From assembly GCA_038131245.1 (NCBI GenBank), contig JAYPPA010000004.1, positions 14,038 through 78,037 of the forward strand: 64,000 bases of DNA, in the 5' to 3' direction. Each line of letters begins with the position of its first letter. The first letter of the stretch is position 1. A model generated the notes under the pieces. It saw only the letters and a program-made list of their open reading frames with translations. It did not search any database and was not told the DNA's origin. The position numbers were made by a program, and so were the translations under genes. Of the stretch, positions 22,581-41,934 are shown piece after piece. The DNA is from Rickettsia sp. GTDB lineage: Bacteria > Pseudomonadota > Alphaproteobacteria > Rickettsiales > UBA1997.

Positions 22581-22659
22581 AGTAAGGCTTGAGAGGGTTC
22601 TTTAAGGTTAGAGGTAAAGGCGCCCTCTTCCTTTTGCGAATTTGATTAAAACAAACATC

Positions 22660-22688
22660 TTGACTTTTTTGTGTAAATGAATTATAAT
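22660..22688 (+). promoter_or_regulatory. sigma70-type promoter candidate (TTGACT-17-TATAAT) for tRNA-Gln
   Basis: -35 = 22660-22665, -10 = 22683-22688, 23 nt upstream of the tRNA 5' end. Confidence 0.6.
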
Positions 22689-22711
22689 GTTGATTCTATT
22701 CTTTTCTTTGT

Positions 22712-22786
22712 TGGGGCGTAGCCAAGCGGTAAGGCACCGGTTTTTGGTACCGGCATGCGTAGGTTCGAATCCTTCCGCCCCAGCCA
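22712..22786 (+). tRNA. tRNA-Gln (anticodon UUG), CCA encoded
   Basis: Hand-folded cloverleaf. Acceptor TGGGGCG/CGCCCCA, 3-bp D stem GCC/GGC, anticodon stem CCGGT/ACCGG with loop TTTTGGT, T-loop TTCGAAT. Closely resembles the E. coli tRNA-Gln(UUG) layout. Confidence 0.85.
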
Positions 22787-22980
22787 TCCGCTTTCGCTAA
22801 CGCTACAGCGCGATTTATCCGCAAAATCATATCTTAAGCTAAATTTTGGAAGGTTCGGACCTTAGGTTCGCAAACATTTCTAGATTTTCTTAATGAATGA
22901 AATGAATTTAGAAAATCCTTAAATGTTTCAAGTGAGCAACGCGAACGCCATCCAACGTCTAATTGACAAAAAACTACCTA

Positions 22981-23286
22981 TTATATTAAATGCTCTTTTA
23001 CTATTAAGGCGACATTGCTAGCATTTATTCCCTTGTTTTTGCAGTAGTTACTACTAAGCCAATCTTTAAGAATTTTTGACCCCTTGCTTGAATTGCAAGA
23101 GTGGCAACAAAGTGCAATATTTTCAACTCCATTTATCTTAATATTGTTAATTATATGCTCCCAACTTGGACTTAATTTTTTTGATTCATTAGATTTTGCA
23201 AATTCGATACCACAATAAACACAACTTAGATCTCGCTGCCTAACAAATTCTTCAACTTCTTTTGAAATTCCCCATTTATTAGACAT
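22981..23286 (-). CDS. small HNH endonuclease
   Basis: 101 aa. 'CVYCG..(22 aa)..WEHIINN..(14 aa)..CCHSCNSSKG' gives the Cys-box/His-Asn-His (HNH) pattern. Confidence 0.7.
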   Translation of the reverse strand: MSNKWGISKEVEEFVRQRDLSCVYCGIEFAKSNESKKLSPSWEHIINNIKINGVENIALCCHSCNSSKGSKILKDWLSSNYCKNKGINASNVALIVKEHLI

Positions 23287-23304
23287 ATTTAAATATAAAA
23301 TTTG

Positions 23305-24129
23305 TTAAATTTGTCTAAATTTCTCATCTAGAGTTTTTCCATTTTTATCTTTCCACGACGTCCAGCCGTTACTTCTCATTCCAAGACAGAATGTTGATGC
23401 TGAAGAAGGGCTTTTAAAAATTATATTTTTTTCAACAATGAATAAATCCTCGCTTTCTTTGCAAAATTTCTCAAAGTAGAAACTTCTATTCATTGCGGCA
23501 CTTCCTTTAAAAACAAATGAATTTGTTGTTTTTTTACAAATTTTTGATCCCGACAAAACGGTAAATCCATTTTCATCATAAAATCCCTTAGCATCAGTTC
23601 CTTTACCACTTTTGCAATAAAATAAGTGCCTTGTCTTTTCTTCTATTGTTTCAAAAAGCTTATATCCCAGGAAAGAGCTTAACAACTTTACATCTTCAAA
23701 AAATTCATGAACAGAGTCTTGTTGATGCTCTTGTAAATTAGGAATTTTAGGACTCTGCTTATTTTCTTCAAGGCTAAATCGATCAGCTTTTTCGATCTGA
23801 TTAATTGCCAAAAATTCTAGATATTGAACATCAGCTTTAGTCAAATAGTTATCTTTAGCGCTAAATGCTATTGCCTCATTCCAAAACTCCTTTTTTAAAT
23901 CATGATCCTTAACTCGTTCAATAAAGTTTTCCGTTTCACCAACATATGCCTTATTTTCTTCTCCAATTAATATATAAATAGATGGGCGACTTAACTCTTC
24001 TCGATTCTTTGCTTCACTTAGCTTAGCTCTTGGAATATAAAGAGCGTTGCAAATTTTATTTGAAATAAATACAGACTTTAATCCAGTTGAGCTACCTTCA
24101 ATTAGGTAAGTTGTAATTGTTTTTCCCAT
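23305..24129 (-). CDS. GIY-YIG nuclease-like protein with DUF4357-type C-terminal domain
   Basis: 274 aa. The N-terminal 'SIYILIGEENKAYVGETENFIERVKDH' is GIY-YIG-like. The C-terminal 'GFTVLSGS..FKSPSSASTFCLGMRSNGWTSWKDKNGKTLDE' matches my recollection of the DUF4357 pattern. Confidence 0.6.
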   Translation of the reverse strand: MGKTITTYLIEGSSTGLKSVFISNKICNALYIPRAKLSEAKNREELSRPSIYILIGEENKAYVGETENFIERVKDHDLKKEFWNEAIAFSAKDNYLTKADVQYLEFLAINQIEKADRFSLEENKQSPKIPNLQEHQQDSVHEFFEDVKLLSSFLGYKLFETIEEKTRHLFYCKSGKGTDAKGFYDENGFTVLSGSKICKKTTNSFVFKGSAAMNRSFYFEKFCKESEDLFIVEKNIIFKSPSSASTFCLGMRSNGWTSWKDKNGKTLDEKFRQI

Positions 24130-24275
24130 AATTCATATTTTATTACATTTTTAATGCCACCGTCCCATTCTATCCTAAAGCTTTCCAAAATTCCAGCTCT
24201 TTTATTATCCTTTAGGGCCCAGCAATTCACCTTAACTAAAAAACTACAAAAGGGCAAAATTTTGACTTTGCTTAT

Positions 24276-25685
24276 CTAGTGAAAGACATCTTCTTGACTA
24301 AAGGTTTCTGCTTGGTAGTCTGCGAGTGTTTTGTGGTAATCGATAAAGATAAGGATGTTTTGGATTTTTGCTTGCGCGGTTTGCTGCTCTCTTAAATTAA
24401 CGAAAAAGAAGTCTCCTGCGCCCTTTTTAAAGCGTTTTTCTTCAGTTTTTTCTAACTTTTTGAGTAAAATAATTTCCTGAGTAATATTTTCATGCATTTT
24501 TACAGTATTGTTGAGATTGTTTTTAATTTGCTGTAGGGTGACTTTGATATTATCTTGTAAGAGTCTTTCTTCGTACTTTACTTTGTCTATTTTTGCTCTG
24601 GATTTGGCGATCTCTCCTTTGGCCTGGCGTTGCTGTAGGGGTATTTCTAGCTGTAGTCCTATTTCGTTTTTTGTTTGTCCTTGCGCCGGGTTTTCGTTTG
24701 AAATGTCGTTGGATATGTTAAAATCGAGGTCTAATTTTGGCTTGTAGAGGTTTTTTGCCTGCCTGAGGTTGTTGAATTCTTTTTGTTTAGTGACCTTAAT
24801 TATGTTGATATCGGCTCTGTTTTGAAGGGCGTATAATGTTTTTTGCTCTAGGTTTTCGGGGTTTATTTGTCGAAGTTTTTGGTCTGTGTTTATTTTGGGC
24901 AGTTGATTGGTTTGTGCGATTATTGGCTGAGCATTCTCGTCGCGGTAAAATAAGGAAAGATATAATGCAGAGTTTTTAAAGTCTTGCAGTGCTTTTAGCA
25001 TAAAATTTTTTCGCGATAGTAAGTTACGCTCATTTTCTATTAATGTAATTTGAGCTAAATCGCCCTTTTTTACTCTGATTTTGAGCTTTTCGTTTCTTTT
25101 TAAGGTAAGTTCATACAATTCCTTGTAAGTTTCGTAAATTTTGCCTGATGATATCCAATCGTAATATGCCTTAGTGGAGTCTCTTCTGATTTCATTTTTA
25201 ATATTATATAGCGCGTATTTACTTGCTTTTAAGTCTAGCTTTGCTAAGGCGAGGGTGAGGCGATTTTGGTCAAACATAGAATTTCTTAATAGAGAAAATC
25301 TTGCTCCGGCACGAAATTCTCCATCTCGATTGGTTTGCATTTGAGTTTCGTGATTTTCAAAAGATCCAAATGATTTTCGATAGCCGCCATATATTTCGCT
25401 GCCCAAAAATTGGTTGTTTTTGACTATTTGAGTATCAATTTGCTTTCCATCGTAAAAACCCCTTGATTTGTCAAAGACGCTTTGGCGCAGTCTGATATCA
25501 AAGAATCCTTGACTTGCTAATATCGAGCCTTTTGCTGCCTTGACTTCTTCGTAGAGCGACAGGATTTTTGGGTAATTTGTAGTGGCTGAGTTTGTGACTG
25601 TTTTTAGAGTTAGTGGTGTTGCATTGGAGGCTTGTAAGCTATTTGGGCATAAAATTATCGTGATTAGTAAAAAAAATCTTCTCAT
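24276..25685 (-). CDS. TolC-family outer-membrane channel
   Basis: 469 aa. Signal peptide MRRFFLLITIILCPNSLQA, two long coiled-coil/beta repeats, and operonic position after the HlyD and ABC genes (4-nt overlap). Confidence 0.75.
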   Translation of the reverse strand: MRRFFLLITIILCPNSLQASNATPLTLKTVTNSATTNYPKILSLYEEVKAAKGSILASQGFFDIRLRQSVFDKSRGFYDGKQIDTQIVKNNQFLGSEIYGGYRKSFGSFENHETQMQTNRDGEFRAGARFSLLRNSMFDQNRLTLALAKLDLKASKYALYNIKNEIRRDSTKAYYDWISSGKIYETYKELYELTLKRNEKLKIRVKKGDLAQITLIENERNLLSRKNFMLKALQDFKNSALYLSLFYRDENAQPIIAQTNQLPKINTDQKLRQINPENLEQKTLYALQNRADINIIKVTKQKEFNNLRQAKNLYKPKLDLDFNISNDISNENPAQGQTKNEIGLQLEIPLQQRQAKGEIAKSRAKIDKVKYEERLLQDNIKVTLQQIKNNLNNTVKMHENITQEIILLKKLEKTEEKRFKKGAGDFFFVNLREQQTAQAKIQNILIFIDYHKTLADYQAETFSQEDVFH

Positions 25686-26689
25686 TTTAACTGATCTTTT
25701 GTTTGCATTTCGTCAAATTCTGGAGGAAAATTATTAATTTGGCGCCATAATTCATATCCCAGGCTGACTTCGTTTAGCAAGACCCAGCCATATGCTTTTG
25801 CCATGTGTCTCAAGAATTTTTTGTTGGGCCATTCTTCATCTGGTGCTTTTGAAACTATGACACGGAACTTGCCATTTTGAGATGCTGCTGAGTCTATTGC
25901 TGTGACTACTCCGCCAAAAGTGCCGATTGCGACTTCGGGCCAGCCACTAAATTGGACTGCGGGCCATCCTTCGAATTGTAGCCTTACTTTACGACCTTTG
26001 TAAATTAATGGAATATCGTTGCCACTTATGTAAAGTTCTACCGCGGGTTCGTTAAGATCTGGGGCAAATGTTGCTATTTGATCTCCTTCTTTGACGATTG
26101 TGGAGTTATTTCCAGCCAATAATTTTAATATTGTGCCATCTTTTGGAGCGTAGATTGTCTGGCTTTTTTGACGAGAAAGCTTTATTTGTGCTTCTGTGGC
26201 TTCGGCATTTGCTGTTTCTAGGGCGCTGAGAAGTTTTTTATATTCTATCTTAGCTTTTTCAAACTCTTTTCGAGAAGATATGCCTTGTGAAAATAGATCT
26301 TTTTGGCGCTCGTAATTAATCTTAGCAGTATTGGCAGCAATTTGTGCGACTTCACTTTTGCGTTTTTTAGCGTCTAGTTGATCTTGAATTCTTTGAAGTA
26401 TTTGAGGGTCATTATCAACGATCTCGACTATTTTTTCTCCTTTTTTAATATGATTTCCGTCACGCACATACCACCTATCTATACGCCCCGAAACAGTAGC
26501 ATTGATTGATTGAGTTCTGTCATTTGGGTCGATTGCAATAATGTAACCAACTCCTTTGGAAGTTTGTTGCCAAGGGGTAATTATTAATATCGCTATGGTT
26601 GCAACCAGTATTGTTAATATTATTTTTGGTAATATTTTTACTGGATTTGGAACTTTAATACTGTTGAGTGTCTTAAATTCTTTTTCCAT
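25682..26689 (-). CDS. HlyD-family periplasmic adaptor (membrane fusion protein)
   Basis: 335 aa. N-terminal TM, lipoyl-like 'VSGRIDRWYVRDGNHIKKGEKIVEI', a coiled-coil hairpin, and beta-barrel 'IYAPKDGTILKL'. Confidence 0.8.
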   Translation of the reverse strand: MEKEFKTLNSIKVPNPVKILPKIILTILVATIAILIITPWQQTSKGVGYIIAIDPNDRTQSINATVSGRIDRWYVRDGNHIKKGEKIVEIVDNDPQILQRIQDQLDAKKRKSEVAQIAANTAKINYERQKDLFSQGISSRKEFEKAKIEYKKLLSALETANAEATEAQIKLSRQKSQTIYAPKDGTILKLLAGNNSTIVKEGDQIATFAPDLNEPAVELYISGNDIPLIYKGRKVRLQFEGWPAVQFSGWPEVAIGTFGGVVTAIDSAASQNGKFRVIVSKAPDEEWPNKKFLRHMAKAYGWVLLNEVSLGYELWRQINNFPPEFDEMQTKDQLK

Positions 26690-26691
26690 GG

Positions 26692-28365
26692 TTAAATTTC
26701 AATAATTTGATCAAAAATTTTAATATTATCGTCCTTGTGATTTGAAAAATAAATTACTGTTGCGCTTGAGTTTTTGGTTATATATTCTAGGATTTTTTGC
26801 CTTAAATCAAAGTTCATTATATCAAGAATTTCGTTGACAATAATTATTTGCGCATCAAAAATTAATGCATGAGCAATTTTTATCAAGACAACCTCTTCTT
26901 CGTTTAGTGGCCAGCCGGTAGGTATTATTCTTAGATTGAGATTTTCTGGGAATTGGTTGATTTTTTTATCTAAGCCTAAATCCTGAAGAATTTGGTTAAT
27001 TTGACCTTTTTGGATATCTTGCCTGCCAAAAGTTAGATTTTCGAGCAGCGTTCCTTCCATTAGCGGCTTATTGTTAATGATCTTGACTTGATTTCGAAAG
27101 TTAGCCATATTATAGCTATATAAGTCTTGGTTATCTATTTTTACTTCTCCGACGGCTGGTCTTTCAAAATCAAACATTGTATTTACTAGAAATTTTTGAG
27201 TTTGTTGACTTTTTTCGTGTATTAAATAGTTTTTGCCGCTTAGGATTTTAAGATTAATAACGGTATCTGGGTCTTCTTTGCTTGAAATATTATCGAAGTG
27301 GATATTTTTAAATTCTTTAATTATGGGCTTGTCAAGCCTTTCCTTTTGTATTGGAATATTAAAAAAGACCGATAGTTTTTCGCAGGCAGCTATCAAGTCG
27401 TACATGTTTTCAAAGTCGCGACTAAGGTGCGATGTTGAATATAGAATGGCTGATAGGATTAATTCTGCAGCGACCAATTGACCTATTGTTAGCTCTCCTT
27501 TTAGAACTAAATAGCCTCCTAGAATTAGCAATGCTGTACTAGAAATAGCATATAGAATTAAAAGTAATATGGTTTGCGAGAATAGATTTTTAAAGTGACT
27601 TTTTCTATCAGTAATATAACGCCTAGTTAGTTCGTCTATTTTAAATTTTGCATAATCTTGACCATTTTGAGATTTGAACATAGGTGTATTGTTAGCAAGG
27701 TCTTCAAAGCTTGCGACTATGTCATATTTTCTGCGGCTTTCTAGAAAAGCCGTGATACAGGCTTTTTTAAAATATTTAACATATATTAGATAGAGGCTAA
27801 AGATGAATATTGCGCTAAATAGCAGGAAAAATGGGTGATATAGAGATACTAAAATAAGACCTATAGCAGCTTGAAAAAGAAATGAAATAGTTTTGACTAA
27901 AAATTTTGGCACAGTTTTTTGCAAAGTGACTACATCAAAAAACCGATTGATGAGTTCTGGCATGTTGGCTTCTTCCATTTTTTTGATGTCCGCGTTTAGT
28001 AACCTAGTACATAGTTTTGCAGACATGCTGGCGATTATTCTTCTTTGAAAAATTTCAACGGTATATATTTGTAAAGCATTCAAGGTTCCAGAAAAAATTA
28101 ATAGAAATAGTAATAGCATGCCTAGGACTATTACTGGTTGAATCATTGCTGTAAAAGATACTGAATTTATTAAAAGCTGAACAGAGATTGGGACTGCGAC
28201 TCCTAATATACTAATGATAACTGAGTATATGATAACGCTATATAGAAAATTGCGGTCACTATAAAGGATTTTTTTGACAAATTCGAAGATTTTTGGGTTT
28301 TCAATATCATTGCTAAATGGCTTGTGTAGCTTTTGATAGTTGATTTTGAAATTTGAATTTATCAT
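26692..28365 (-). CDS. ABC exporter-type fused TMD-NBD protein with degenerate nucleotide-binding motifs
   Basis: A six-TM type-I exporter domain is followed by an NBD-like domain. At the Walker A position it reads 'LIHEKSQQTQKF' (no GxxGxGK[ST]). The signature position reads 'TGWPLNEEE' (no LSGGQ). Walker B reads 'IIIVNEILD' (Asp->Asn). The start is moved to ATG 28365 (MINSNF...) because a TTGCAA-17-TATACT promoter lies at 28407-28435, inside the longer track ORF (to 28452). Confidence 0.7.
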   Translation of the reverse strand: MINSNFKINYQKLHKPFSNDIENPKIFEFVKKILYSDRNFLYSVIIYSVIISILGVAVPISVQLLINSVSFTAMIQPVIVLGMLLLFLLIFSGTLNALQIYTVEIFQRRIIASMSAKLCTRLLNADIKKMEEANMPELINRFFDVVTLQKTVPKFLVKTISFLFQAAIGLILVSLYHPFFLLFSAIFIFSLYLIYVKYFKKACITAFLESRRKYDIVASFEDLANNTPMFKSQNGQDYAKFKIDELTRRYITDRKSHFKNLFSQTILLLILYAISSTALLILGGYLVLKGELTIGQLVAAELILSAILYSTSHLSRDFENMYDLIAACEKLSVFFNIPIQKERLDKPIIKEFKNIHFDNISSKEDPDTVINLKILSGKNYLIHEKSQQTQKFLVNTMFDFERPAVGEVKIDNQDLYSYNMANFRNQVKIINNKPLMEGTLLENLTFGRQDIQKGQINQILQDLGLDKKINQFPENLNLRIIPTGWPLNEEEVVLIKIAHALIFDAQIIIVNEILDIMNFDLRQKILEYITKNSSATVIYFSNHKDDNIKIFDQIIEI

Positions 28366-28406
28366 ATCATTAATAAAATTTAATGTTTTTGCTGTGATAT
28401 TATAAT

Positions 28407-28435
28407 AGTATAGTAATATAGTTGGTTTTTTGCAA
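28407..28435 (-). promoter_or_regulatory. sigma70-type promoter candidate (TTGCAA-17-TATACT) for the ABC/HlyD/TolC operon
   Basis: -35 = 28430-28435, -10 = 28407-28412 on the minus strand. Confidence 0.45.
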
Positions 28436-28461
28436 GTAAAAATGTAAGTCATTAACTATAG

Positions 28462-28489
28462 TTGACTTTTTCTTGATTTTTAATATTAT
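28462..28489 (+). promoter_or_regulatory. sigma70-type promoter candidate (TTGACT-16-TATTAT) for pntAB
   Basis: -35 = 28462-28467, -10 = 28484-28489. Confidence 0.45.
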
Positions 28490-28531
28490 TTAGTATATAA
28501 TTGAATTATGGATAAATAAATATAGAAGATT

Positions 28532-28885
28532 ATGATAAACTCTGATTTGTTAAAATATAAACTTGCTAGGGGCATTGACATAGCCGCAAGCAGCGGTGGT
28601 GAGTCTACGCCATTTGTACTTGCTTTCACGATTTTTGTACTGGCTTGCTTTGTGGGGTATTTTGTGGTCTGGAGGGTGACTCCGGCGCTTCACACGCCTT
28701 TGATGGCTGTAACAAATGCGATTTCAAGTGTGATTATTGTTGGGGCGATTATTGCTCTTGGCGCCGTGGATGACTTGACCAGTGGAATCTCAATTTTTAG
28801 CTTTATTGCTATTGTTATTGCTAGTATCAATATTTTTGGTGGATTTTTTGTTACATACCGCATGCTGTCTATGTTTAAGAGGTAG
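28532..28885 (+). CDS. pntAB: NAD(P) transhydrogenase subunit alpha part 2 (membrane subunit PntAB)
   Basis: 117 aa. '[39 protein letters not shown]' is the conserved PntA C-terminal/PntAB motif. Confidence 0.85.
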
Positions 28886-28900
28886 TCACCTAAAGCGACA

Positions 28901-30235
28901 ATGAAAATAAAAAATAAAATATTGTTATTATTTTCTTTGTTATTTTTCTTTAAAGAGGCTTTAGCAAAGCCTACTTCAATTGATGTTGATGAAAATATTC
29001 AAAAGGCTCCTGATTTTTTGAATGGCATTTCTATTTCTGGCCAAGTGACAGCAATCTACCAATCAAGTAATCTTAACTTAAAGGTTGGTGATTTAAAAAA
29101 CTCCAGCGGAGCCAATCTCACACAAGCACAGTTACAGCCTTATGATCACAGGGATGAGTCTGGGTCTATTTCTGCTGATATTATTGTTAAAAAGAAATTC
29201 AATGAAGATGAGTTTTTATATTTTGATCTACAGTTTGCAGATGGCCCCGGTGTAGATGATCGGTTGCAAGGTGGTGGAATGGTAAATAATGATGTTATGG
29301 AGGATCCAAATAATCAAAGGGAGGTTTATTTGGCGAAGGCTTTTTATGAGCGAACTTTTAGATTTGCTGAAGATAAAAAAATTGTTGTTGATATTGGTAA
29401 ATTTGGTGTGAATGATTTTTTTGATGTAGGAGAGGAGAATTCTGATCAAACTACGCAATTTTTGAATCAGGCGATTGCCAATAATGGTGCTTTTGATTAT
29501 GTTCAGGGTCTAGAGGGGCATGGTTATACTTATGGTATTAGGGCTGGTGTTGGTAATGATTTGGTTCAGCTTGATCTGGGGTTTTTCTCTTCGGATTCTA
29601 AGCTTGATAATATTGCTGATAAAAATTCGATTGTTGCTGGGTTTAGTATTATGCCGCAGATTGCTGGAAATAAAGGTGTTTATCAAGTTTATGTGTTTTC
29701 AAATCGCGGCGAATATGCTGCTTTTGATAATAATGGTAATTTGTTGAGCAAGAATGTTGGCAGTATTAATACTGCTTCTAATGCTGATAATTTAGATAAA
29801 AATGGTATTGGACTTAGTATTACCCAGGTTTTGTCGGATAAAATCAATGCATTTGCCAAATATGGCAAGCAAGATGATGATGTTGATGTTCGTCATTACC
29901 AAGATATGGATGAAAGTTACATGGTTGGTGCGAATTTTAGTGGTAAATTTTGGTCGCGTAGTGATGATGAGATCGGAGTTGCCTATGAAGTTGGTCGTTT
30001 GACCGGAAATCATAGGAAGGCTCATGAAAAGGGTTATTCTGGGTTTTTTGATAGAAGTGGCGGCGTTGGGGCTGGTAATTATGGTGATGAAACGGTGCTT
30101 GAGGTTTATTATCGATATGCTTTAAATGCTCATTCTAGCATTAGTGTGGATGCTCAAAATATATCAAATTTTTACTATAGCAAGAAAATTGGCGATGTGC
30201 AGTTTTACGCAGTGAGGTTTAATGCGGGTTTTTAG
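28901..30235 (+). CDS. outer-membrane beta-barrel porin (OprB/carbohydrate-porin-like)
   Basis: 444 aa. Signal peptide MKIKNKILLLFSLLFFFKEALA, alternating beta-strand pattern, C-terminal '...YAVRFNAGF'. Subfamily is uncertain. Confidence 0.55.
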   Translation: MKIKNKILLLFSLLFFFKEALAKPTSIDVDENIQKAPDFLNGISISGQVTAIYQSSNLNLKVGDLKNSSGANLTQAQLQPYDHRDESGSISADIIVKKKFNEDEFLYFDLQFADGPGVDDRLQGGGMVNNDVMEDPNNQREVYLAKAFYERTFRFAEDKKIVVDIGKFGVNDFFDVGEENSDQTTQFLNQAIANNGAFDYVQGLEGHGYTYGIRAGVGNDLVQLDLGFFSSDSKLDNIADKNSIVAGFSIMPQIAGNKGVYQVYVFSNRGEYAAFDNNGNLLSKNVGSINTASNADNLDKNGIGLSITQVLSDKINAFAKYGKQDDDVDVRHYQDMDESYMVGANFSGKFWSRSDDEIGVAYEVGRLTGNHRKAHEKGYSGFFDRSGGVGAGNYGDETVLEVYYRYALNAHSSISVDAQNISNFYYSKKIGDVQFYAVRFNAGF

Positions 30236-30252
30236 GGTGGGTTAAAATATTC

Positions 30253-30281
30253 TTGACATTTATTTTTTTATGTTTTATAAT
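30253..30281 (+). promoter_or_regulatory. perfect sigma70 consensus promoter (TTGACA-17-TATAAT) of the cys operon
   Basis: -35 = 30253-30258, -10 = 30276-30281. Followed by a ~340-nt leader before cysG. Confidence 0.7.
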
Positions 30282-30391
30282 TATATTAAGCAAAGGAATT
30301 TTAGCTGGTTTTTCTGGTGGATTCTTTGCGCTTTATATCAATTAAAAACAAGAAAGTGAAAAATTTATTTTCAAATAAAACTTTTTCTAGC

Positions 30392-30445
30392 ATGTCTTCT
30401 TCTCAATCTATGAGCTTGCTTACTTCTTGTTGTTGCTGTCTATAA
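30392..30445 (+). CDS. candidate cys-operon leader peptide MSSSQSMSLLTSCCCCL
   Basis: ATG 30392, TAA 30443-30445. Four consecutive Cys codons (tgt tgt tgc tgt, 30428-30439), plus 6 Ser and 2 Met. Lies between the promoter and cysG. Below the ORF-track length cut-off. No obvious SD, but most genes in this window also lack one. Confidence 0.6.
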   Translation: MSSSQSMSLLTSCCCCL

Positions 30446-30626
30446 AAAAATAAAGATCCCCTTTGGTATTTATCCGTTTTTTGTTTTTGCGGTGCTCAAG
30501 GTGCTATTTTGCACATTTTGCGCTCCTTAAAACAAAATAACGAATAAATCTCTTTGGGTATCTTAATTTTTCTCCCTGCGTGCTAAATCCTGCGTGCTTT
30601 TTTCATATGCTTTAAATTTTTTTAAG

Positions 30627-32063
30627 ATGTATTTTCCGATTTTTTTAAATATTAATAAGGTTAAGATCCTTATTGTTGGGGCTGGGAATGTGGCTTTGGC
30701 GAAGCTTGAGGCGATTTTGGAGCTTGGGCCTGGAGGAGGTGTGACTGTGCTTTCGAAGGAGTTTTTGCCTGCGCTTAAGGATTTGGCTAGTAAAAATAAT
30801 GTGCAGTTGGTTGAAGGTGAGTATGACGAGAAATATTTGACTGATTTTGATGTGGTGGTTGCTGCGACTGATGATTTGGCGGTGAATGCTAGGGTTGCTT
30901 TGGATGCGAAAAAACTTAAGAAAATTGTCAATGCGGTTGATGATCCGAAAAATTCTGATTTTATTTTTGGAGCAAATGCCAAGTTTGGTGATATTGTAAT
31001 TTCAACAGGAAGTAGTGGAGTTTCGCCGGTTTTATCGCGGTTGATTAAGCAGAAAATTCAGGCATTTTTGCCGAGGAATTTGGTTGCTCTTAGTGATTTT
31101 TTAGCGAAAAATAAAGATTTAGTTCGAGGTAAAGTTAGGGATTTGCAAACTAGAAGATTGTTTTTGCAAGATGTAATTGAAGGAGTGGTTGGATCGGAAA
31201 TTGAGGCGGGGAACGCTGAGAAAGCGCAGGAAATTTTTGAGAAAAAGTTGGAAGGGGCTGCTTTGGAAGGAAAAAATAATGGGGCGGTGTATTTTATTGG
31301 GTCTGGGCCTGGGGATGTGGATTTGCTGACTTTGAAGGCGGTGAAGCTTTTGAGTAAGGCGGATGTGGTGCTTTATGATCGCTTGGTGGGCCCGGAGATT
31401 TTGAGCTATGCAAGAAAGGATGCGCTAAAGATTAGCGTTGGTAAAACTCGGGATTTTCATTCATTTACGCAAGAGCAGATTAATGCTGAGCTTAGGAAAT
31501 ATACTTTGCAAGGTAAGGTTGTGGCGCGGCTTAAGGGTGGTGATGTGGCGATTTTTGCGCGGCTTAGCGAGGAAATTGATGCGATTAAGGATTTGGATGT
31601 GCCTTACCAGATTGTTCCTGGGATTACTGCGGCAAGTGGGGCTAGTGCTTATGCGGGGATTCCGCTGACTTCGCGGGATTCGAATAAGTCGGTGCGGTTT
31701 TTGACGATTTACAAAGAGAATTTGGTTGATGAGTCTTACTGGGCTGAGCTTGCGAAGAGTGAGGATTCGCTGGTTTTGTATATGTCGTCGCATAATTTGG
31801 CGGGGGTTGCTGAGAAATTGGTTGAGGCTGGTAAGGGCGATACGCCACTAGCGGTGATTGAACAGGCTACTACGCCATTTCAGAAAACTTATTTGAGTTC
31901 GTTGACTAAGGTTGGTAAGGATTTTGCTGGCAAGAAATTTACTTCGCCGTCACTGGTTATTATTGGTGATATTGTTGCTGGGCATCGAGATTACAAGTGG
32001 AAAGAGGAAAAATTACAGGGAATTTATTTCAATGAATTAAAAAAATATGTTGGAAAAAATTAA
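30627..32063 (+). CDS. cysG: siroheme synthase (precorrin-2 dehydrogenase/sirohydrochlorin ferrochelatase + uroporphyrinogen-III C-methyltransferase)
   Basis: N-terminal 'MYFPIFLNINKVKILIVGAGNVA' Rossmann fold. The C-terminal SUMT domain has 'VYFIGSGPGDVDLLTLKA', 'VVARLKGGD' and 'VPGITAA'. The track start at 30594 is GTG within the leader; ATG 30627 is preferred. Confidence 0.9.
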   Translation: MYFPIFLNINKVKILIVGAGNVALAKLEAILELGPGGGVTVLSKEFLPALKDLASKNNVQLVEGEYDEKYLTDFDVVVAATDDLAVNARVALDAKKLKKIVNAVDDPKNSDFIFGANAKFGDIVISTGSSGVSPVLSRLIKQKIQAFLPRNLVALSDFLAKNKDLVRGKVRDLQTRRLFLQDVIEGVVGSEIEAGNAEKAQEIFEKKLEGAALEGKNNGAVYFIGSGPGDVDLLTLKAVKLLSKADVVLYDRLVGPEILSYARKDALKISVGKTRDFHSFTQEQINAELRKYTLQGKVVARLKGGDVAIFARLSEEIDAIKDLDVPYQIVPGITAASGASAYAGIPLTSRDSNKSVRFLTIYKENLVDESYWAELAKSEDSLVLYMSSHNLAGVAEKLVEAGKGDTPLAVIEQATTPFQKTYLSSLTKVGKDFAGKKFTSPSLVIIGDIVAGHRDYKWKEEKLQGIYFNELKKYVGKN

Positions 32064-32739
32064 AAAACAGACAAAAGATCTAAATTGGCAGGAAAAATTG
32101 ATTTTTGTGGCGAAAAATTACGAAAATGTGGTTTTTTCGACGAGTTTTAGCCTTGAAGATCAGGTTATTCTTGATTTTATTGCGCAAAACGATTTGAAGA
32201 TCGAGATTTTTACACTGGATACTGGTCGATTATTTAGGGAAACTTATCAGGTTTGGCAAAATAGTTTGGAGAAATATGGCTTGAAAATTGGGGCTTTTTA
32301 TCCAAATCAGGATGAAATTGCGAGTTTTGTTGAGCAAAATGGCATTAATGCGTTTTACGATAGTGTGGATTTGCGTAAAAAATGTTGCGCGATTCGCAAA
32401 GTTGAGCCGCTTAAAAGGGCGCTTAAAAATAAAGAGATTTGGATTAGTGGAATTCGAAAAGGTCATTCTGAGGCTAGGTCTGATAAGGATTTTTTTGAGG
32501 AAGATAAAGGTCTGGGGTTGCTTAAATTTTATCCACTTTTGGATTTTTCTGAGGAGGATTTATGGAGCTATATTGATAAAAATTCGGTGCCAATTAATTC
32601 TTTATATAAAAAAGGTTTTAAGTCGATTGGTTGTCAGCCATGCTCTAGGGCGGTATCTTCGGGTGAAGATGATCGCGCCGGAAGGTGGTGGTGGGAGAGT
32701 GGCAATGGTAACAAAAAAGAGTGTGGTTTACACAATTAA
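32047..32739 (+). CDS. cysH: adenylyl-sulfate (APS)/PAPS reductase, Fe-S (APS-type) form
   Basis: 230 aa. The C-terminal 'ECGLH' catalytic motif is present. The Cys pairs 'KKCCAIRK' and 'GCQPCS' are characteristic of [4Fe-4S] APS reductases. Confidence 0.88.
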   Translation: MLEKIKKQTKDLNWQEKLIFVAKNYENVVFSTSFSLEDQVILDFIAQNDLKIEIFTLDTGRLFRETYQVWQNSLEKYGLKIGAFYPNQDEIASFVEQNGINAFYDSVDLRKKCCAIRKVEPLKRALKNKEIWISGIRKGHSEARSDKDFFEEDKGLGLLKFYPLLDFSEEDLWSYIDKNSVPINSLYKKGFKSIGCQPCSRAVSSGEDDRAGRWWWESGNGNKKECGLHN

Positions 32740-32752
32740 ATAAATTTAAATT

Positions 32753-34174
32753 ATGTTAGAGCAAAATAAACAAGAAATTGTAAATAAAATAATCGCCGAT
32801 TTTACAAAGGAGGAGATTCTTTGGATTGGTGGTTATTTGAGTGGAGCAGCTTTGCAAGGGGTAAAATCGTCAATTGGGGCGGCTGAAGCTAAATTTGCTG
32901 CGAAAATTACGCTGATTTATGTTAGCGAGACTGGAAATTCGAAGTTTTTGGCGGGTAAAGTGGCTGATTATCTGAAAAAACAAGGTGGTCAGGTCAAGGT
33001 TAAATCTGCTGAGCAATATCGTCTTAAGGATTTGCAAAAAGAGGAAAATGTGATTTTGCTGACCTCGACTCATGGTGAAGGTGAAGTCCCCGAGCAGGGC
33101 AAGGCTTTGTTTGAGTACATTAAAAATGAGGATTTGAATTTGAGCAAGCTTAATTATTTTGTAATTGGACTTGGCGATCGTAATTATCCGTTATTTTGCC
33201 AGGCTGCGAAGGATTTTGATGAGGCTTTGACAAATAAAAAGGCAAAAAGATTGGCGGGGGTGGCTGAATTTGACTTGGATTTTGAAAATTATGTCGAAGA
33301 GTTGTCAAAAAAGTCAAAAAATTTGTTTTCTGGTGGGGAAAATGCGGTTGAAGATGTAAAAATTGTGCAAAAAACTAATAAAAATGAGTTTATTGGTGAA
33401 ATTGTGCAAAATGTGAATCTTAATGATGATGGTTCAACTAAAGAGACTCATCATATTGAGATTATTTGCGATGATGAGCTTGATTTTGAGCCGGGTGACT
33501 CGGTTGGGATTTTGCTTGAAGGAGAGGATCTTGGCTTGAAAAAAGAGGAGAAGATTACGCCGAGACTTTATTCTGTTGCTTCGAGCAAGGATGAGCATGG
33601 CAATGAAATTCATTTGACGGTGAGTGTGCTTCGTTATTTGGATGAAAATGGTAATGAGGTTAAGGGGCTTTTTTCTAGCTATTTGGCGAATTTGAAGGAG
33701 GGTGAGAAGGTTAAGTTTTATATTTCGAAGAACCGTAATTTCAAATTGCCAGAGCCTCAAAAAGATGTGATTATGATTGGTCCTGGGACTGGGATTGCGC
33801 CATTTAGAGCGTTTTTGGGACATCGAAATGCGAATGGTGACTCTGGGAAAAATTGGTTATTTTTTGGTGAGAGAAATTTTCAGTCGGATTTTTTGTATCA
33901 AACTGAATTGCAAGATTATTTGACGAGCGGTTTGTTGACAAGGCTTGATGTGGCTTTTTCTCGTGATCAGGAGGAGAAAATTTACGTGCAAGATCGAATT
34001 AGGCAAGCTGCCGAAGAGTTTTTGAATTGGATTGAGGCTGGTGCTTATATTTACATTTGCGGCGATAAGGAAAAAATGGCTAAAGATGTCGAAAAAGTGA
34101 TTTTGGAGGCAATTGGAGAAGAAATTTTCCAAAAATTGAAGGCTGAAGGCAGATATTTGCTTGATGTTTATTAA
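32753..34174 (+). CDS. cysJ: sulfite reductase [NADPH] flavoprotein alpha component (short form)
   Basis: 473 aa. Flavodoxin 'ITLIYVSETGNSKFLA', FAD 'RLYSVASS', NADPH 'GPGTGIAPFRAF' and 'YIYICGD'. Confidence 0.85.
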   Translation: MLEQNKQEIVNKIIADFTKEEILWIGGYLSGAALQGVKSSIGAAEAKFAAKITLIYVSETGNSKFLAGKVADYLKKQGGQVKVKSAEQYRLKDLQKEENVILLTSTHGEGEVPEQGKALFEYIKNEDLNLSKLNYFVIGLGDRNYPLFCQAAKDFDEALTNKKAKRLAGVAEFDLDFENYVEELSKKSKNLFSGGENAVEDVKIVQKTNKNEFIGEIVQNVNLNDDGSTKETHHIEIICDDELDFEPGDSVGILLEGEDLGLKKEEKITPRLYSVASSKDEHGNEIHLTVSVLRYLDENGNEVKGLFSSYLANLKEGEKVKFYISKNRNFKLPEPQKDVIMIGPGTGIAPFRAFLGHRNANGDSGKNWLFFGERNFQSDFLYQTELQDYLTSGLLTRLDVAFSRDQEEKIYVQDRIRQAAEEFLNWIEAGAYIYICGDKEKMAKDVEKVILEAIGEEIFQKLKAEGRYLLDVY

Positions 34175-34187
34175 AAAATAAAAAACA

Positions 34188-35837
34188 ATGACAAAAGTAG
34201 AAAAAATAAAAAAAGATAGTCGCGGCTTAAGAGGAAGTTTGCAAAAAAGTCTGACTAATAATGTTACTGGGGCTCTAGCCAGCGATGATCAGATGATTGT
34301 AAAGTTTCATGGTTCGTATCAACAAGATGATCGCGATTCACGGGCAAGAAGGGCGGAAAAAAAGCTTGAGAAGCTTTATTCGTTTATGCTTAGGCTTAGG
34401 ATTTCTGGCGGGAAGATTACTGGCAAACAGTGGCTTGGGATTCATGAAATTGCGTCTAAAAATGCTAATGAGACTATTAAAATTACGACTCGTCAAACTG
34501 TGCAGCTTCACGGGATTGTGAAGTCGAAGTTAAAGCCGACGATTGCGTCTTTTTATAAGGATTTTGACATGGATTCGATTTCTGCGTGCGGCGATGTGAA
34601 TAGAAATGTGATGGTGTCGACGGCTGTTGAGAAAAATGCTGCTTATGCAGAGGTTTTTGAATATGGCAAAAAAATCAGCGATTATTTACTGCCGAAAAGT
34701 AAGGCTTATCATGAGATTTGGCTTGATGGAGAAAAGCTAGAGGGCGAGGCCGAGAAGGACGAGCTTTATGGCGAGACTTATCTGCCGCGTAAATTCAAGA
34801 TTGTGCTGGCGATTCCACCGCATAATGATGTTGATGTTTATGCGCATGATATTGGTTTGGTGGCAATTATTGAAAATGAGATTTTGCAGGGTTTTAACAT
34901 TATTGTTGGCGGTGGAATGGGTCGAGTTCATGGCAATGACAAGACTTTTGCGCGAGTTGGTGATTTGGTTGGATTCGTCCCAAAAGAGAAGGTTTTGGAT
35001 GCAGTTTATCAAATTGCGGCTATTCAGCGTGATTTTGGTAATCGTGAAGATCGAGCGCTTTCTCGTTTTAAATATACGATTGCAAAATATTCTAAAGAAT
35101 GGTTTGTCGAGAAATTTGCGCAGTATTTTGGTGAAAAGTTGGAAAAAGCCCGCGATTTTAAGCTAAAATCTAGAGCTGATCAGCAAGGTTGGCACAAAGA
35201 TTATTTAGGCAAGAATCATTTGCTGCTTTTTGTAGAGCATGGCCGAGTATTTGGAGCTAAAAAACAAGCTTTGTTTGAAATTGCTGAGGCTAAATTAGCG
35301 AATTTTCGCTTCACTAATAATCAAAATATCATCATTAGCGATGTTTTGACAAAAAATAAGGCAAAAATCGAGGAAATTTTGGCAAAAAATGGGATTTTCG
35401 ATGAAAAAATCTCGCCAATTAGATTTTCTTCGATGGCTTGTGTGGCGCTTAATACTTGTAGCTTGGCTTTGGCTGAGGGACAGCGTTATTTGCCTGATTT
35501 GGTGACTAAAATTGAAGTTTTGCTTAAAAAATATGATCTTGAAAATGATGCAATTTCGATTCGCATGACGGGCTGTCCTAATGGTTGTGCTCGCCCTTAT
35601 TTGGCGGAAATTGCGCTAGTTGGAAAGGCTCTTGGTAAATATGATTTACATTTAGGCGGAGATCGAGTCGGTCAAAGACTTAACTTAATTTATAAAGAAA
35701 GTCTTGGCGAAGAGGAAATTTTACAAGAACTTGATGAAAAATTCTCATTTTATGTAAAAAATCGTAAAAAAAATGAGAGTTTTGGAGATTATATTTTTCA
35801 AAATGATAAAATTAAATTATTAAAAAATGCTAAATAA
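34188..35837 (+). CDS. cysI: sulfite reductase hemoprotein beta component
   Basis: 549 aa. 'RLRISGG', '[10 protein letters not shown]' and the siroheme/4Fe-4S Cys cluster '[10 protein letters not shown]'. Confidence 0.9.
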
Positions 35838-36723
35838 ACATTTACAGACATTAGAAAATGAATCAATTTATATTATCAGAGAGGCAATAGCCCAAAGTGA
35901 TAATCCGGTTTTGCTTTATTCGATTGGCAAAGATTCTTCGGTACTTTTGCATTTATTGTTGAAGAGTTTTTACCCGGCAAAGCCACCAGTCAAGATTCTT
36001 CATGTTGATACTGGTTGGAAATTTAAGGAAATGATTGAATTTCGTGATTATCAGGCGAAAAAATTTGGGCTTGATTTGATTGTGCATCACAATAAATCTG
36101 GCGCAGATCAAGGAATCGTACCGCACGGTGAGACTTCGAAGATTTACACTGATGTAATGAAGACACAGGCTTTAAAACAGGCGCTTGACGAGCATGAATT
36201 TGATTTGGCACTTGGTGGTGCTAGGCGCGATGAGGAAAAGTCGCGCGCTAAAGAGCGAATTTTCTCGTTTCGTAATAAATTTCATGCTTGGGATCCAAAA
36301 ATGCAAAAACCGGAAATGTTTAATTTGTTTAATTGCAATAAAAATGAAGGAGAGTCAATCCGGGTATTTCCTTTGTCAAATTGGACAGAATTAGATGTTT
36401 GGCAGTACATTAAGGAGCAAGAAATTGAAGTTGTGCCACTTTATTTTGCCAAAAAGCGCAAAATAGTTGACATCAAGGGTAATTTAATCATGAAAGATGA
36501 TGAGCGATTGCCAATTGACGAGTCAAAATTGCAGGAAAAATCGGTAAGATTTCGAACGCTTGGTTGCTATCCTTTGAGCGGCGCAGTTGAGTCGACTGCA
36601 AAAGATATTGATCAGATTATTGACGAGATGAAAGCAAGTAAATTTTCAGAGCGACAAGGCCGCATGATCGACAAAGATTCTGAAGGAAGTATGGAGCGCA
36701 AAAAGCGTGAGGGCTATTTTTAA
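35827..36723 (+). CDS. cysD: sulfate adenylyltransferase subunit 2
   Basis: 298 aa. '[12 protein letters not shown]', PP-loop '[14 protein letters not shown]' and 'RERIFSFR'. Confidence 0.92.
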
Positions 36724-36747
36724 ATTATTAAAATAAAATAAAACAAA

Positions 36748-38124
36748 ATGATAAAATTTTTAACAGCAGGAAATGTTGATGATGGTAAATCAAGTCTAAT
36801 TGGCAGGCTTCTTTACGATAGCAATTCGCTTTTCGAAGATCAAATCGAAGAGGTAAAGAGGTCGACCGATGATTCTTTTAATGGCGAGCTAGATTTTTCG
36901 CTATTTTTAGATGGTTTGATTTCGGAAAGAAAGCAAAAAATCACAATTGATGTGGCTTATCGTTATTTTTCTTATGATGACAAGAAATTTATTATCGCAG
37001 ACGCGCCTGGGCATGAGCAATACACTAGAAACATGGCTGTTGCGGCGGCGAATAGTGATGTTATTATAATTTTAATTGATGCAAGTAAAAAAGTCAAGCC
37101 ACAAACGTTAAGACATAGTTATATTGCAAATTTATTTGGTATAAAAAAGGTGATTGTTGCTGTAAATAAGATGGATTTGGTCAATTATGATGAGCGGATT
37201 TTTGCTGAAATTAAATCTGATTATTTACAAAAAACTAAGGATTTAAGTTTTTCTGAGGTTGATTTTGTGCCAGTTTCTTCAATAAATGGTGAAAATATCG
37301 TTGAAAAAAGTCAAAATATGCCTTGGTATGAGAAAAAAACCATTATCGAGCTTTTAAATGACGAGAAAAATGAAGAAACCTCTCAAGATAATGAGCTTAG
37401 ATTGTTGGTGCAAAATGTTGTAAAGCATAAAAATAAGAGACTTTATCAGGCTTTTGTGACTTTGGGGGAAGTTAAATTAAATCAGGAAGTTTTGATTTAT
37501 CCATCGCAAAAATTGGCAAAAATTACTAAAATTATTAGATCGCAAAAATCAGTAAAAACTGCTTCAAGAGGAGACTCTATTTCTTTTGAGCTGGATAGCG
37601 ATTTGGATTTAGAAAGAGGCGGGGTTGTGACTTTGAAAGATGCGCAAAATCTTATTTTTAGTGATAAATTAAAGGCAAATTTGATCTGGTTTGGTGCTGA
37701 TTTGACTAAAAAAGATTTACTAAAGAGGGAATTTATTGTTAAAATTAGTCACAATGATGTTTTGGCTTCAATTGAGAGCTTGAATGCGGTTACTGATTTG
37801 GCTGATGGCTTTGCTAAGGAAAATAAAGGCTTGCTAAAATTAAATCAAATTGCGAATATTGATTTATCTTTGTCGAAAAAAGTCGCATTTGATAAATTTG
37901 CGAATAATAAATTTACTGGTTCATTTTTACTAATTGATCAAATTAGCAATGAAACTTTGGCTTGTGGAATTGTTGAAGACGAGGCGCAGAGTAAAAATTT
38001 AGATTTGGAAGATAAGAATCTTGATGAGTTTCTGAAGGGCCTTTCTATTTTGTTAAAAAAGCATTTTCCGAAGTCTAATTTGAGCGCGGATGCTTTTTTG
38101 GAGAATTTTTCGTCGAAATATTAA
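36748..38124 (+). CDS. cysN: sulfate adenylyltransferase subunit 1 (GTPase), no fused APS-kinase domain
   Basis: 458 aa. G1 'GNVDDGKSSLIGRLL', G3 'DAPGHEQY', G4 'NKMD'. The protein ends after the EF-Tu-like beta domains. Confidence 0.9.
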   Translation: MIKFLTAGNVDDGKSSLIGRLLYDSNSLFEDQIEEVKRSTDDSFNGELDFSLFLDGLISERKQKITIDVAYRYFSYDDKKFIIADAPGHEQYTRNMAVAAANSDVIIILIDASKKVKPQTLRHSYIANLFGIKKVIVAVNKMDLVNYDERIFAEIKSDYLQKTKDLSFSEVDFVPVSSINGENIVEKSQNMPWYEKKTIIELLNDEKNEETSQDNELRLLVQNVVKHKNKRLYQAFVTLGEVKLNQEVLIYPSQKLAKITKIIRSQKSVKTASRGDSISFELDSDLDLERGGVVTLKDAQNLIFSDKLKANLIWFGADLTKKDLLKREFIVKISHNDVLASIESLNAVTDLADGFAKENKGLLKLNQIANIDLSLSKKVAFDKFANNKFTGSFLLIDQISNETLACGIVEDEAQSKNLDLEDKNLDEFLKGLSILLKKHFPKSNLSADAFLENFSSKY

Positions 38125-38145
38125 CTTTAATTAATTATAAATATT

Positions 38146-39072
38146 ATGAAAATAGCAAATAACTTAATCGAATTAATTGGAAATACACCATTGGTTCGAA
38201 TCAATGAATTGAACAAGTCAAAGGCGAATGTGATTGCCAAGCTTGAATATTACAATCCGGCGAATTCGGTGAAGGATCGAATTGGGGCAAATATGATTGA
38301 ATCAGCAGAAAAATCTGGTGCGATCAAGAAAGGCAGCGTGTTGATTGAGCCGACTTCGGGAAATACTGGGATTGCGCTGGCGTTTGTTGCTGCTATTAAG
38401 GGCTATCGATTGATCTTAACAATGCCAGAAACAATGTCAATCGAGCGACGTAAATTATTGAGGGCTTATGGTGCTGAATTGGTTTTGACTGAAGGCGCAA
38501 AAGGCATGAAAGGTGCGATTGAAAAGGCAGAAGAATTACAAAAAGAAACTAAAAATTCGGTAATTTTACAGCAGTTTAAGAATCAGGCCAATGTTGAAAT
38601 TCATCAAAAGACTACTGCTGAGGAGATTTGGCGAGATACGAACGGCAAAATCGATATTTTGGTGAGCGGCGTTGGGACTGGCGGAACAATTACTGGGATT
38701 GCTTCGGTTTTAAAAAAGCGTAATCCAGATTTTAAAGCAATCGCCGTAGAACCAGAAGCCTCGCCAGTTTTGTCTGGCGGGCAGGGCGGTCCTCATAAAA
38801 TTCAAGGAATTGGCGCAGGTTTTGTGCCAGATATTCTTGACACAAGCCTAATTGACGAGATTTTCAAAGTATCTAATGAAGATGCGATAAATACTGCGAG
38901 GCAATTGGCGCTTAAGGAAGGGATTTTGGGTGGAATTTCATCCGGAGCAGCTGCTTTTGCCGCTTTGGAAGTTGCCAAGCGCAAAGAAAATAAAGGCAAG
39001 AATATTGTGTTTATTTTGCCTTCTTTTGGTGAGCGCTATTTGAGTTCGGTGCTTTTTGATAATTTGGATTAG
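38146..39072 (+). CDS. cysK: cysteine synthase A (O-acetylserine sulfhydrylase)
   Basis: 308 aa. '[10 protein letters not shown]', PLP-Lys '[11 protein letters not shown]', '[10 protein letters not shown]' and '[10 protein letters not shown]'. Confidence 0.93.
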
Positions 39073-39077
39073 GCTTC

Positions 39078-39165
39078 GTAATTTTATCCCTAGAGCATCA
39101 ATTGGATCGTCCAAGTACTATAGTACGAGGATCTCGCCAATTAACACTCTAGGAGCAAAATTATT
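39078..39165. repeat. 88-bp palindromic element (family with core ..caattggatcg.cca.gtact.ta..) between cysK and cysE
   Basis: The left arm (gtaattttatccctagagcatcaattggatcgtccaagtac) pairs with 39125-39165. Related copies lie at 48244-48292 and 57643-57730, with a half copy at 57784-57814. Confidence 0.85.
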
Positions 39166-39201
39166 TTGCCTAAAAATTGAATTCAAAAATAAAAATATAA
39201 A

Positions 39202-40286: not shown

Positions 40287-40295
40287 TTTTAGATT

Positions 40296-41661: not shown

Positions 41662-41799
41662 TATGATTTATGCTGCGGTAAAAAATTGACAAAAATAGCC
41701 TCTAATTATAGCATATAGTGTCAAGTACAAAATTGCAAGAGGCTTTTTAAAGATGCGCAAAATCAACTTCAAAGTTGTAGTGTTTTGCTTCGTGTGCGA

Positions 41800-41934
41800 T
41801 TAAACAGCTAGGCTTTTACGACCTTTAGCGCGTCTTTTTGCAATGATTGCGCGACCTGATGCAGTTGCCATTCTAGCTCTGAAACCGTGCTTTCTTTTTC
41901 TAACCAATTTTTTTGGCTGCCATGTTCTTTTCAT
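41800..41934 (-). CDS. rpmH: 50S ribosomal protein L34
   Basis: Not in the ORF track (44 aa). Minus strand translates to [44 protein letters not shown]. Confidence 0.93.

Follow-up and report, generated by a model that had tools for sequence, protein, structure and literature searches.

A candidate cysteine-sensing leader peptide upstream of the cysGHJIDNKE operon in an uncultured Rickettsiales-labelled bacterium

The analyzed stretch of DNA (hereafter, the window) comprises 64,000 nucleotides of contig JAYPPA010000004.1 (positions 14,038 to 78,037, forward strand) of assembly GCA_038131245.1, assigned to Rickettsia sp. (GTDB order Rickettsiales, UBA1997); positions below are counted from its first nucleotide. 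The window carries the eight-gene cysG-cysH-cysJ-cysI-cysD-cysN-cysK-cysE operon (30627–39726, plus strand), and a short open reading frame (ORF) precedes it on the same strand at 30356–30445. This is most probably (we estimate about 0.85) a translated leader ORF that signals, through the Cys codons at its C-terminal end, how much charged tRNA-Cys is available. An initial annotation, made from the letters of the window alone, had proposed a Cys-codon leader peptide before the cys operon and left its mechanism open. This core reading is supported by conservation: when the upstream regions of relatives were scanned, as that annotation had suggested, 35 of 37 loci had a short sense-strand ORF that ends in a Cys run 41–217 nt ahead of cysG. 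With plentiful cysteine, the ribosome would pass the four Cys codons, terminate at the TAA codon (30443–30445), and leave, and cysGHJIDNKE expression would be low. When Cys-tRNA is scarce, the ribosome would linger on 30428–30439, the very last part of the ORF, and the operon would be expressed more strongly.

The CysG protein of the window had no exact-sequence match, and a genome scan with this single protein was also empty; the CysG alignment then gave relatives. No close relative was found among species-representative genomes, and the best public matches were metagenome-assembled. The relatives gathered were L001–L003 (CysG 80, 74, and 73% identical), those obtained by a CysG-alignment scan of genome and metagenome collections, and three more distant ones added to the set. 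The 37 loci originated from metagenome-assembled genomes labelled Rickettsiales or uncultured Alphaproteobacteria, with CysG 45–80% identical and upstream DNA available. After removal of identical leaders, 31 of 33 loci retained the Cys-run ORF. Each leader contains three to eight Cys codons among its last 14 codons, with the last Cys codon 0–2 codons from the stop in every leader; the number of Cys codons varies over this range even among close relatives. The leader peptides of clades other than the subclade of the window are 17–38 residues long, are unrelated in sequence, and end in CCC, CCCC, CCCCCCC, CCNCCCC, CCCSKCCCSCCC, and similar runs. ORFs with at least three Cys in the last six codons occurred at a chance level of 0.028 per kb (all frames, both strands, 358 kb of out-clade control loci), and the chance expectation at the leader position and strand is roughly 0.006 per locus. 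The comparison of the sequences thus establishes the ORF, its coding signature, and its positional conservation in about 35 lineages.

The exceptions were L090, where cysG directly abuts another gene, and the in-clade locus L016, where the Cys-containing upstream ORF (uORF) is missing and GC-rich palindromes fill the spacer. This 233-nt spacer (L016:2250–2482) contains the GC-rich inverted repeats gggaatgggtctcctgacccattccc and ggggtctggagaccctgacc, resembling inserted palindromic repeats. The Cys-run ORF was also absent from the most distant lineage covered, represented by L101 and L102 (CysG 43% identical). A divergently transcribed gene for an Rrf2-family (IscR/CymR-like) regulator adjoins cysG there (L101:864–1304 and L102:959–1399), and protein-based control may replace the leader in these genomes.

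The borders of the leader ORF differ from those initially proposed, namely 30392–30445. The frame from ATG 30392 to TAA 30445, encoding MSSSQSMSLLTSCCCCL, is indeed present in the window, but this ATG reads GAG in L001–L004, the four relatives that form a subclade with the window. All five sequences of the subclade have an in-frame GTG (30356 in the window) after the invariant AAAAACAAGAAA, and in L001–L004 this GTG is the first start codon following an in-frame stop. The ORF was therefore set at 30356–30445; it consists of 29 sense codons and TAA and encodes MKNLFSNKTFSSMSSSQSMSLLTSCCCCL (a "cysL-like" leader peptide). The putative sensor, the four consecutive codons TGT TGT TGC TGT at 30428–30439, was read directly at the place where it had been reported, one codon before the stop. 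The A-rich initiation region TTAAAAACAAGAAA (30341–30355) lacks a Shine-Dalgarno (SD) sequence and is invariant in the five sequences. The same A-rich, SD-less layout is found at the starts of cysH, cysI, cysD, cysN, and cysE in this genome. Across positions 28500–39800, genes have no SD sequence and A-rich stretches such as aaaataaaacaaaATG precede their starts; cysG differs in being preceded by a U-rich stretch. Codons 1–10 of the leader ORF show three differences between the window and L002, all synonymous and in the third position. Indels in the leaders preserve the frame, and the L003 peptide equals that of L002 (MKNLFSNKTFAGESSAQFKNLSASCSSCCCCQS) minus one in-frame TGT; the L001 peptide is MKNFSVNEIFASESSSHSFLTSSSCVTRCCCCQ. 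Since the indels preserve the frame and the changes are synonymous, this comparative signature demonstrates that ORF 30356–30445 is translated.

The initial annotation had considered four adjacent Cys codons very unlikely to occur by chance. The run is real, but the single-sequence statistic is modest, with two copies of (TGY)4 in 64 kb versus 0.23 expected under a first-order Markov model. The run alone is only moderately surprising, and it is conservation that carries the case. At 62292, the second (TGY)4 is a chance occurrence, antisense inside a large minus-strand gene. No other ORF ending in a Cys run at an intergenic position was found in the 64 kb. The six Ser and two Met codons, listed initially, are not conserved, and sensing through them finds no comparative support.

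Two readings without a sensor have to be weighed against these data. That the ORF is a functionless product of chance in AT-rich intergenic DNA could be argued from the (TGY)4 run that chance did produce at 62292, within a gene and antisense to it; the comparative data refute this reading, since 35 of the 37 loci have the ORF in the same position and orientation, against a background of ~0.006 per locus. Alternatively, the ORF could encode a small cysteine-rich peptide with a function of its own (metal- or redox-active, for instance), co-transcribed with the cys genes. Such a peptide would agree with a translated and conserved ORF and with N-termini that are loosely alike across clades (MKNLFSNK, MIFSQNL, MNNLNSN), and trans-acting leader peptides exist, such as peTrpL in Sinorhizobium. 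However, peptide length and sequence vary freely outside the terminal Cys run, the Cys codons number from 3 to 8 and differ even in close relatives, the ORF always lies directly before the cysteine-synthesis operon, ending 41–217 nt ahead of cysG, and the N-terminal likeness may simply mirror AT-rich codon usage. A functional peptide of this kind is thus very improbable. The peptide is free to change, and the terminal Cys run and the place before the cysteine operon are fixed; therefore, the ORF is better understood as a codon sensor than as a source of a folded product.

For the output of the sensor, we infer an order of preference in which shielding of a Rho-loading site comes first, translational control next, and intrinsic termination third. 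Because the Cys run abuts the stop codon in nearly all relatives, stalled and terminating ribosomes would be within 3–6 nt of each other, so that the readout would have to be dwell time rather than position. Our best guess, offered tentatively, is that the lingering ribosome shields a putative Rho-loading (rut) tract. This tract would start at the leader stop, and a ribosome held on the Cys codons would cover it from Rho; the arrest would result from hungry codons, unlike that caused by the arrest peptides of tnaC, speFL, and cruR. The composition downstream of the leader is consistent with such a tract. Positions +1 to +15 after the stop contain 27–33% C (background 15%) and 5–10% G (background 19%), positions +16 to +40 contain 55–68% U, and the purine content of +1 to +40 is at a median percentile of 0.6%. 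A CCC motif is present within 25 nt after the stop in 12 of 28 leaders versus 5.8% in the background. The C enrichment in long leaders is anchored to the stop and not to the cysG ATG, and the three loci without the uORF are also without the post-stop tract. Polypyrimidine repeats are known to function as artificial Rho terminators, and in tnaC, speFL, and cruR, the rut site beside the stalled ribosome is shielded (PMC12360218, review). For actinobacterial leaders with a Cys run near the stop, polypyrimidine motifs, and no terminator, a tna-like Rho mechanism was proposed earlier (Seliverstov et al. 2005, PMC1262725). Taken as a whole, a Cys-tRNA-sensing leader is quite probably the best explanation of the locus, and the proposed output is its more tentative part.

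In the window, the post-stop tract (AUCCCCUUUGG...UCCGUUUUUUGUUUUU) has CCCC at +13 and a U-run from +20 and forms the 5' arm of a long imperfect hairpin, H2. This hairpin occupies 126 nt on the plus strand (30446–30571), begins 1 nt after the stop codon, and has a predicted energy of -38.7 kcal/mol (z = -6.8); its 5' arm, AUCCCCUUUGGUAUUUAUCCGUUUUUUGUUUUU, is the C/U-rich tract itself. In the subclade of the window, H2 would have been added over the tract, and the downstream hairpin H3 with its U-run (30578–30603) may act as a pause or release point.

Several points weigh against the Rho proposal. Its main weakness at the window locus is H2, since a tract that forms an arm of so stable a hairpin should be inaccessible to Rho. 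In the window subclade, purine content is not exceptionally low over the 40 nt that follow the stop (percentiles 14–29%), the tract is richer in U than in C, rut sites have no reliable sequence signature, and the high C/G ratio of the leader was measured against coding sequence only. A ribosome stalled at the first of four to eight Cys codons would cover little or no tract. The one mycobacterial case worked out by experiment is translational and not Rho-dependent (bioRxiv 10.1101/834739). The leader itself is very probably a cysteine-sensing cis-regulator of cysGHJIDNKE, with the regulation and its direction both deduced from layout and conservation.

The origin of H2 was considered separately. 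A hairpin in the corresponding position of L002 and L004 shows a compensatory change at its apex, and that of L001 is degenerate. A second H2-like copy, about 71% identical, is located in the cysG-cysH spacer of L001 (L001:3758–3866); in the window, cysG and cysH overlap, and no further copy of H2 was found within its 64 kb. Given the second copy in L001, H2 is probably a palindromic repeat element inserted into the leader; it recalls the Rickettsia palindromic elements. It is absent from the short-leader clades, and the leaders of the window subclade are longer (155–193 nt from the stop to cysG). In L012, two tandem Cys-containing uORFs precede cysG (L012:2619–2777 and 2804–2917), ending before their stop codons in SNCCCCC and VIFLQNLYISKNQVSNFVAIACCCLFPC, respectively. 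The second uORF resembles a degenerate duplicate of the first, and the leader may have been tandemly duplicated there. By analogy, the window region after H2 was tried as a degenerate tandem copy of the leader and rejected, since local alignment was no better than that of shuffles (p ~0.09).

The two other outputs considered retain the same Cys-sensing leader. Control of translation, as at Ms5788A of Mycobacterium smegmatis, would mean that the cysG start is masked by RNA structure except when a ribosome stalls on the Cys codons; in a variant, the stalled ribosome would alter loading of the 30S subunit on the U-rich, SD-less cysG initiation region. No other mechanism has been established experimentally for polycysteine leader ORFs. 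Around the cysG start, the U-rich/A-rich sequence can form weak A-U hairpins (unpaired probability of the start 0.34–0.78), and the A-rich segments 30344–30364 and 30526–30546 show complementarity to the U-rich sequence ahead of the cysG ATG. However, there is no SD sequence for the Cys codons to pair with, and in partition-function folding of 27 leaders, placing the ribosome footprint at the first Cys codon, the last Cys codon, or the stop left the predicted accessibility of the cysG start unchanged (means of 0.54, 0.57, and 0.57, respectively, versus 0.56 in the free state). In the window, it even dips slightly under the footprint, from 0.47 to 0.41. With no effect of constrained folding and no SD sequence, sequestration of the ribosome-binding site (RBS) of the mycobacterial type is not supported. 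Thermodynamic folding of AU-rich RNA is a weak test, and it lowers translational control to an unlikely, although still the second-ranked, output.

Intrinsic termination would instead employ H3 (GCGUGC-N8-GCGUGC with two G.U pairs, arms at 30578–30597) and the following U6 (30598–30603) as an attenuator, with the stalled ribosome favoring an alternative fold that prevents H3. These elements, on the plus strand, make up the sole terminator-like site of the leader. Both T-runs listed initially (30477–30488 and 30598–30603) are present, as is the tandem repeat CCTGCGTGC(T) at 30575 and 30589, which is in fact the two arms of the G.U-containing hairpin. H3 is a conserved sense-strand hairpin, kept in L001–L004 through one-sided, structure-preserving changes. 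With the footprint blocking the first Cys codon in the window, its pair probability falls from 0.94 to 0.15 through pairing of 30389–30396 with 30578–30585, and good hairpins followed by U-runs occur just before cysG in several relatives (L019, L023, L024, and L095). Against this, H3 is weak (-4.9 kcal/mol), its stability is no better than that of shuffles (z = 0.11), and the U-run after it is not conserved in L002–L004. L001, L002, and L004 show no such loss of H3 on stalling (probability 0.87–0.96 in all states), and the competing pairing is not conserved. In the window itself, H3 probability is 0.54 with the ribosome at the stop and 0.47 with the ribosome at the last Cys codon, so these states are not distinguished. 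Across 28 leaders, hairpins with U-runs show no significant enrichment (mean z -0.53), and 8 of the 28 have no such hairpin; the 20-kb region from 22001 to 42000 contained 9 terminator-like sites versus 15.8 in its shuffles. Constrained folding revealed a mutually exclusive, stall-dependent alternative in the window only, through a non-conserved long-range pairing, and together with shuffles it found no conserved terminator/antiterminator pair in the leader. This agrees with the initial annotation, in which no convincing pair could be folded by hand and folding with a ribosome constraint was advised. Intrinsic termination is accordingly rated somewhat below translational control, and shielding of the rut tract remains the favored output.

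Another structural element noted initially, the complementarity of AACAAGAA (30347–30354) with TTCTTGTT (30424–30431), was confirmed. In the RNAalifold consensus of the window and L001–L004, AACAAGA at 30347–30353 (plus strand) forms a helix in which the initiation region is paired with 30425–30431 (UCUUGUU; the Ser and first Cys codons). All seven pairs are invariant in these five sequences, so that covariation speaks neither for nor against the helix. It was not seen outside the subclade and was kept out of the proposed mechanism. A search of Rfam 15 revealed no family matching the leader, only sub-threshold noise; two tRNAs were found in the whole window.

Transcription of the leader and operon probably begins at a sigma-70-type promoter, TTGACA-17-TATAAT (30253–30281, plus strand), which matches the consensus in 12 of 12 positions, as previously reported, and is the one perfect TTGACA-17-TATAAT in the 20 kb from 22001 to 42000. 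It is kept in L001–L004 as TTGACT-17-TATAAT or TATAGT. The predicted transcription start site is at ~30288–30290, giving the leader ORF a 5' untranslated region (UTR) of ~67 nt. The minimum-free-energy fold places a stem-loop, H1, near the 5' end of this UTR (30290–30329, plus strand). A hairpin with a different sequence occupies the H1 position in L001–L004, and H1 perhaps contributes to transcript stability. NCBIfam assignments agreed with the initial identification of all eight downstream genes, from cysG (30627–32063) to cysE (39202–39726). The cysG start is ATG 30627 (MYFPIFL...), and the N-terminus MYFP(L/I)FL is kept in relatives. The in-frame GTG 30594, taken by a gene caller as the start of the identical public protein (P0001, 489 aa), and the extension it gives are not conserved in relatives. 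This GTG is located 33 nt 5' of the cysG ATG (extension 30594–30626) and sits within the 3' arm of H3. The L003 operon (L003:1774–4569) has a different layout: gene calling splits cysG into two ORFs (286 and 204 aa), the next gene encodes 456 aa, and an Nramp gene is present instead of cysJ/cysI. The L003 leader is also one Cys codon shorter. This layout could reflect either operon decay or an assembly error. In textbook proteobacteria, sulfate-assimilation and cysteine operons are under the control of CysB-type proteins; no gene for CysB/LysR or another regulator was found adjoining the operon in the window.

The closest functional precedents are found in another phylum. Cys leaders before actinobacterial cys/cbs operons were predicted in 2005 (Seliverstov et al., PMC1262725), and mycobacterial polycysteine leader ORFs, the "Cys ribulon," proved cysteine-responsive by experiment (Canestrari et al., bioRxiv 10.1101/834739). 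The M. smegmatis Cys codons base-pair with the SD sequence region of the gene that follows, and control is translational at the one dissected locus (bioRxiv 10.1101/834739). Among Alphaproteobacteria, the uORFC-8-2 motif, which has two Cys codons and a terminator stem, was predicted ahead of cysS in Rhodobacterales (Brewer et al. 2021, PMC8632094). The statement in the initial annotation that Cys-rich leaders had only been predicted, and for some actinobacterial cys genes, is therefore outdated, given the mycobacterial experiments (bioRxiv 10.1101/834739) and the Rhodobacterales cysS prediction (PMC8632094).

The window leader shares with the mycobacterial and actinobacterial ones a short ORF in which Cys codons are clustered near the stop and which stands as first cistron before cysteine or sulfur-assimilation genes, polypyrimidine motifs between the leader ORF and the first gene, and the absence of a conserved intrinsic terminator. 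With the mycobacterial leaders it would also share the logic by which a ribosome stalled without Cys-tRNA relieves repression. It belongs to another phylum and has no sequence homology to the mycobacterial small ORFs. The latter are leaderless, whereas here the GTG (30356) comes well after the end of the -10 box (30281), leaving the predicted ~67-nt 5' UTR with a hairpin, a spacing conserved in L001–L004. In addition, the downstream gene has no SD sequence, no duplex of Cys codons with the RBS is predicted, and, in contrast to the "Cys ribulon," a single eight-gene operon from cysG to cysE is concerned, with one such ORF in 64 kb. Like uORFC-8-2, it is an alphaproteobacterial uORF with tandem Cys codons and a predicted ribosome-mediated attenuator. 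In uORFC-8-2, however, a conserved stem encloses the two Cys codons (positions 14–15), a terminator stem with a U-run comes next, and a tRNA synthetase gene is regulated; here three to eight Cys codons are at the extreme C-terminus, neither conserved stems around them nor a conserved terminator is present, and a biosynthetic operon is the target.

The classical leaders trpL, hisL, pheL, leuL, thrL, and ilvL, with which the initial annotation had compared the locus, similarly encode, ahead of the biosynthetic operon for the amino acid concerned, a leader peptide whose cognate codons are clustered near the stop, but the set of terminator, antiterminator, and pause hairpins of the trpL/hisL type was not found in this leader. 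With tnaC, speFL, and cruR, it has in common a layout in which a ribosome would be held at the last uORF codons next to a pyrimidine-rich, G-poor tract, which fits dwell-time sensing without alternative folds. The C-rich, G-poor tract by the stop, a feature of these systems, is present in the short-leader relatives; that of the window lies in the H2 arm. Unlike this leader, with its non-conserved peptide and biosynthetic operon, these arrest peptides respond to a small molecule within the exit tunnel, and the genes they regulate serve catabolism or transport. No conserved arrest-peptide residues were found in the leaders outside the Cys run. The leader is thus akin in its working to the polycysteine precedents and a member of none of these groups, since it is not leaderless, has no duplex of Cys codons with the RBS and no conserved terminator, and belongs to another lineage and gene set. 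No description of this element, or of such control for a proteobacterial cysteine operon, was found in the literature consulted.

Elsewhere in the window, two adjacent large paralogous genes on the minus strand (58795–60714 and 60837–63632) encode proteins of 639 and 931 aa with similar N-termini. They share long Pro/Ala/Thr/Ser-rich repeats, and one of the genes has the chance (TGY)4 of 62292 on its opposite strand. These paralogues may encode surface or secreted repeat proteins.

The finding would extend leader-peptide cysteine sensing from Actinobacteria to a proteobacterial sulfate-assimilation/cysteine operon. The mechanism of terminator-less Cys leaders has been in question since 2005 and is solved at one mycobacterial locus only; the independent occurrence in two phyla of a Cys run at the stop, a polypyrimidine tract, and no terminator suggests that the mechanism is shared and provides another system in which to test it. 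More doubtful than rut shielding as such is the broader possibility of a hairpin-free dwell-time attenuator, in which hungry Cys codons at the stop and rut shielding would switch an eight-gene pathway, conserved across an uncultured alphaproteobacterial order and convergent with Actinobacteria. If true, it would join the sensor of classical attenuation to the output of tnaC and speFL. A compact, protein-free cysteine-responsive switch of this kind is also a candidate biosensor. For the bacteria themselves, the leader represents a device kept in about 35 lineages of uncultured Rickettsiales-labelled organisms, in which such small ORFs go unannotated.

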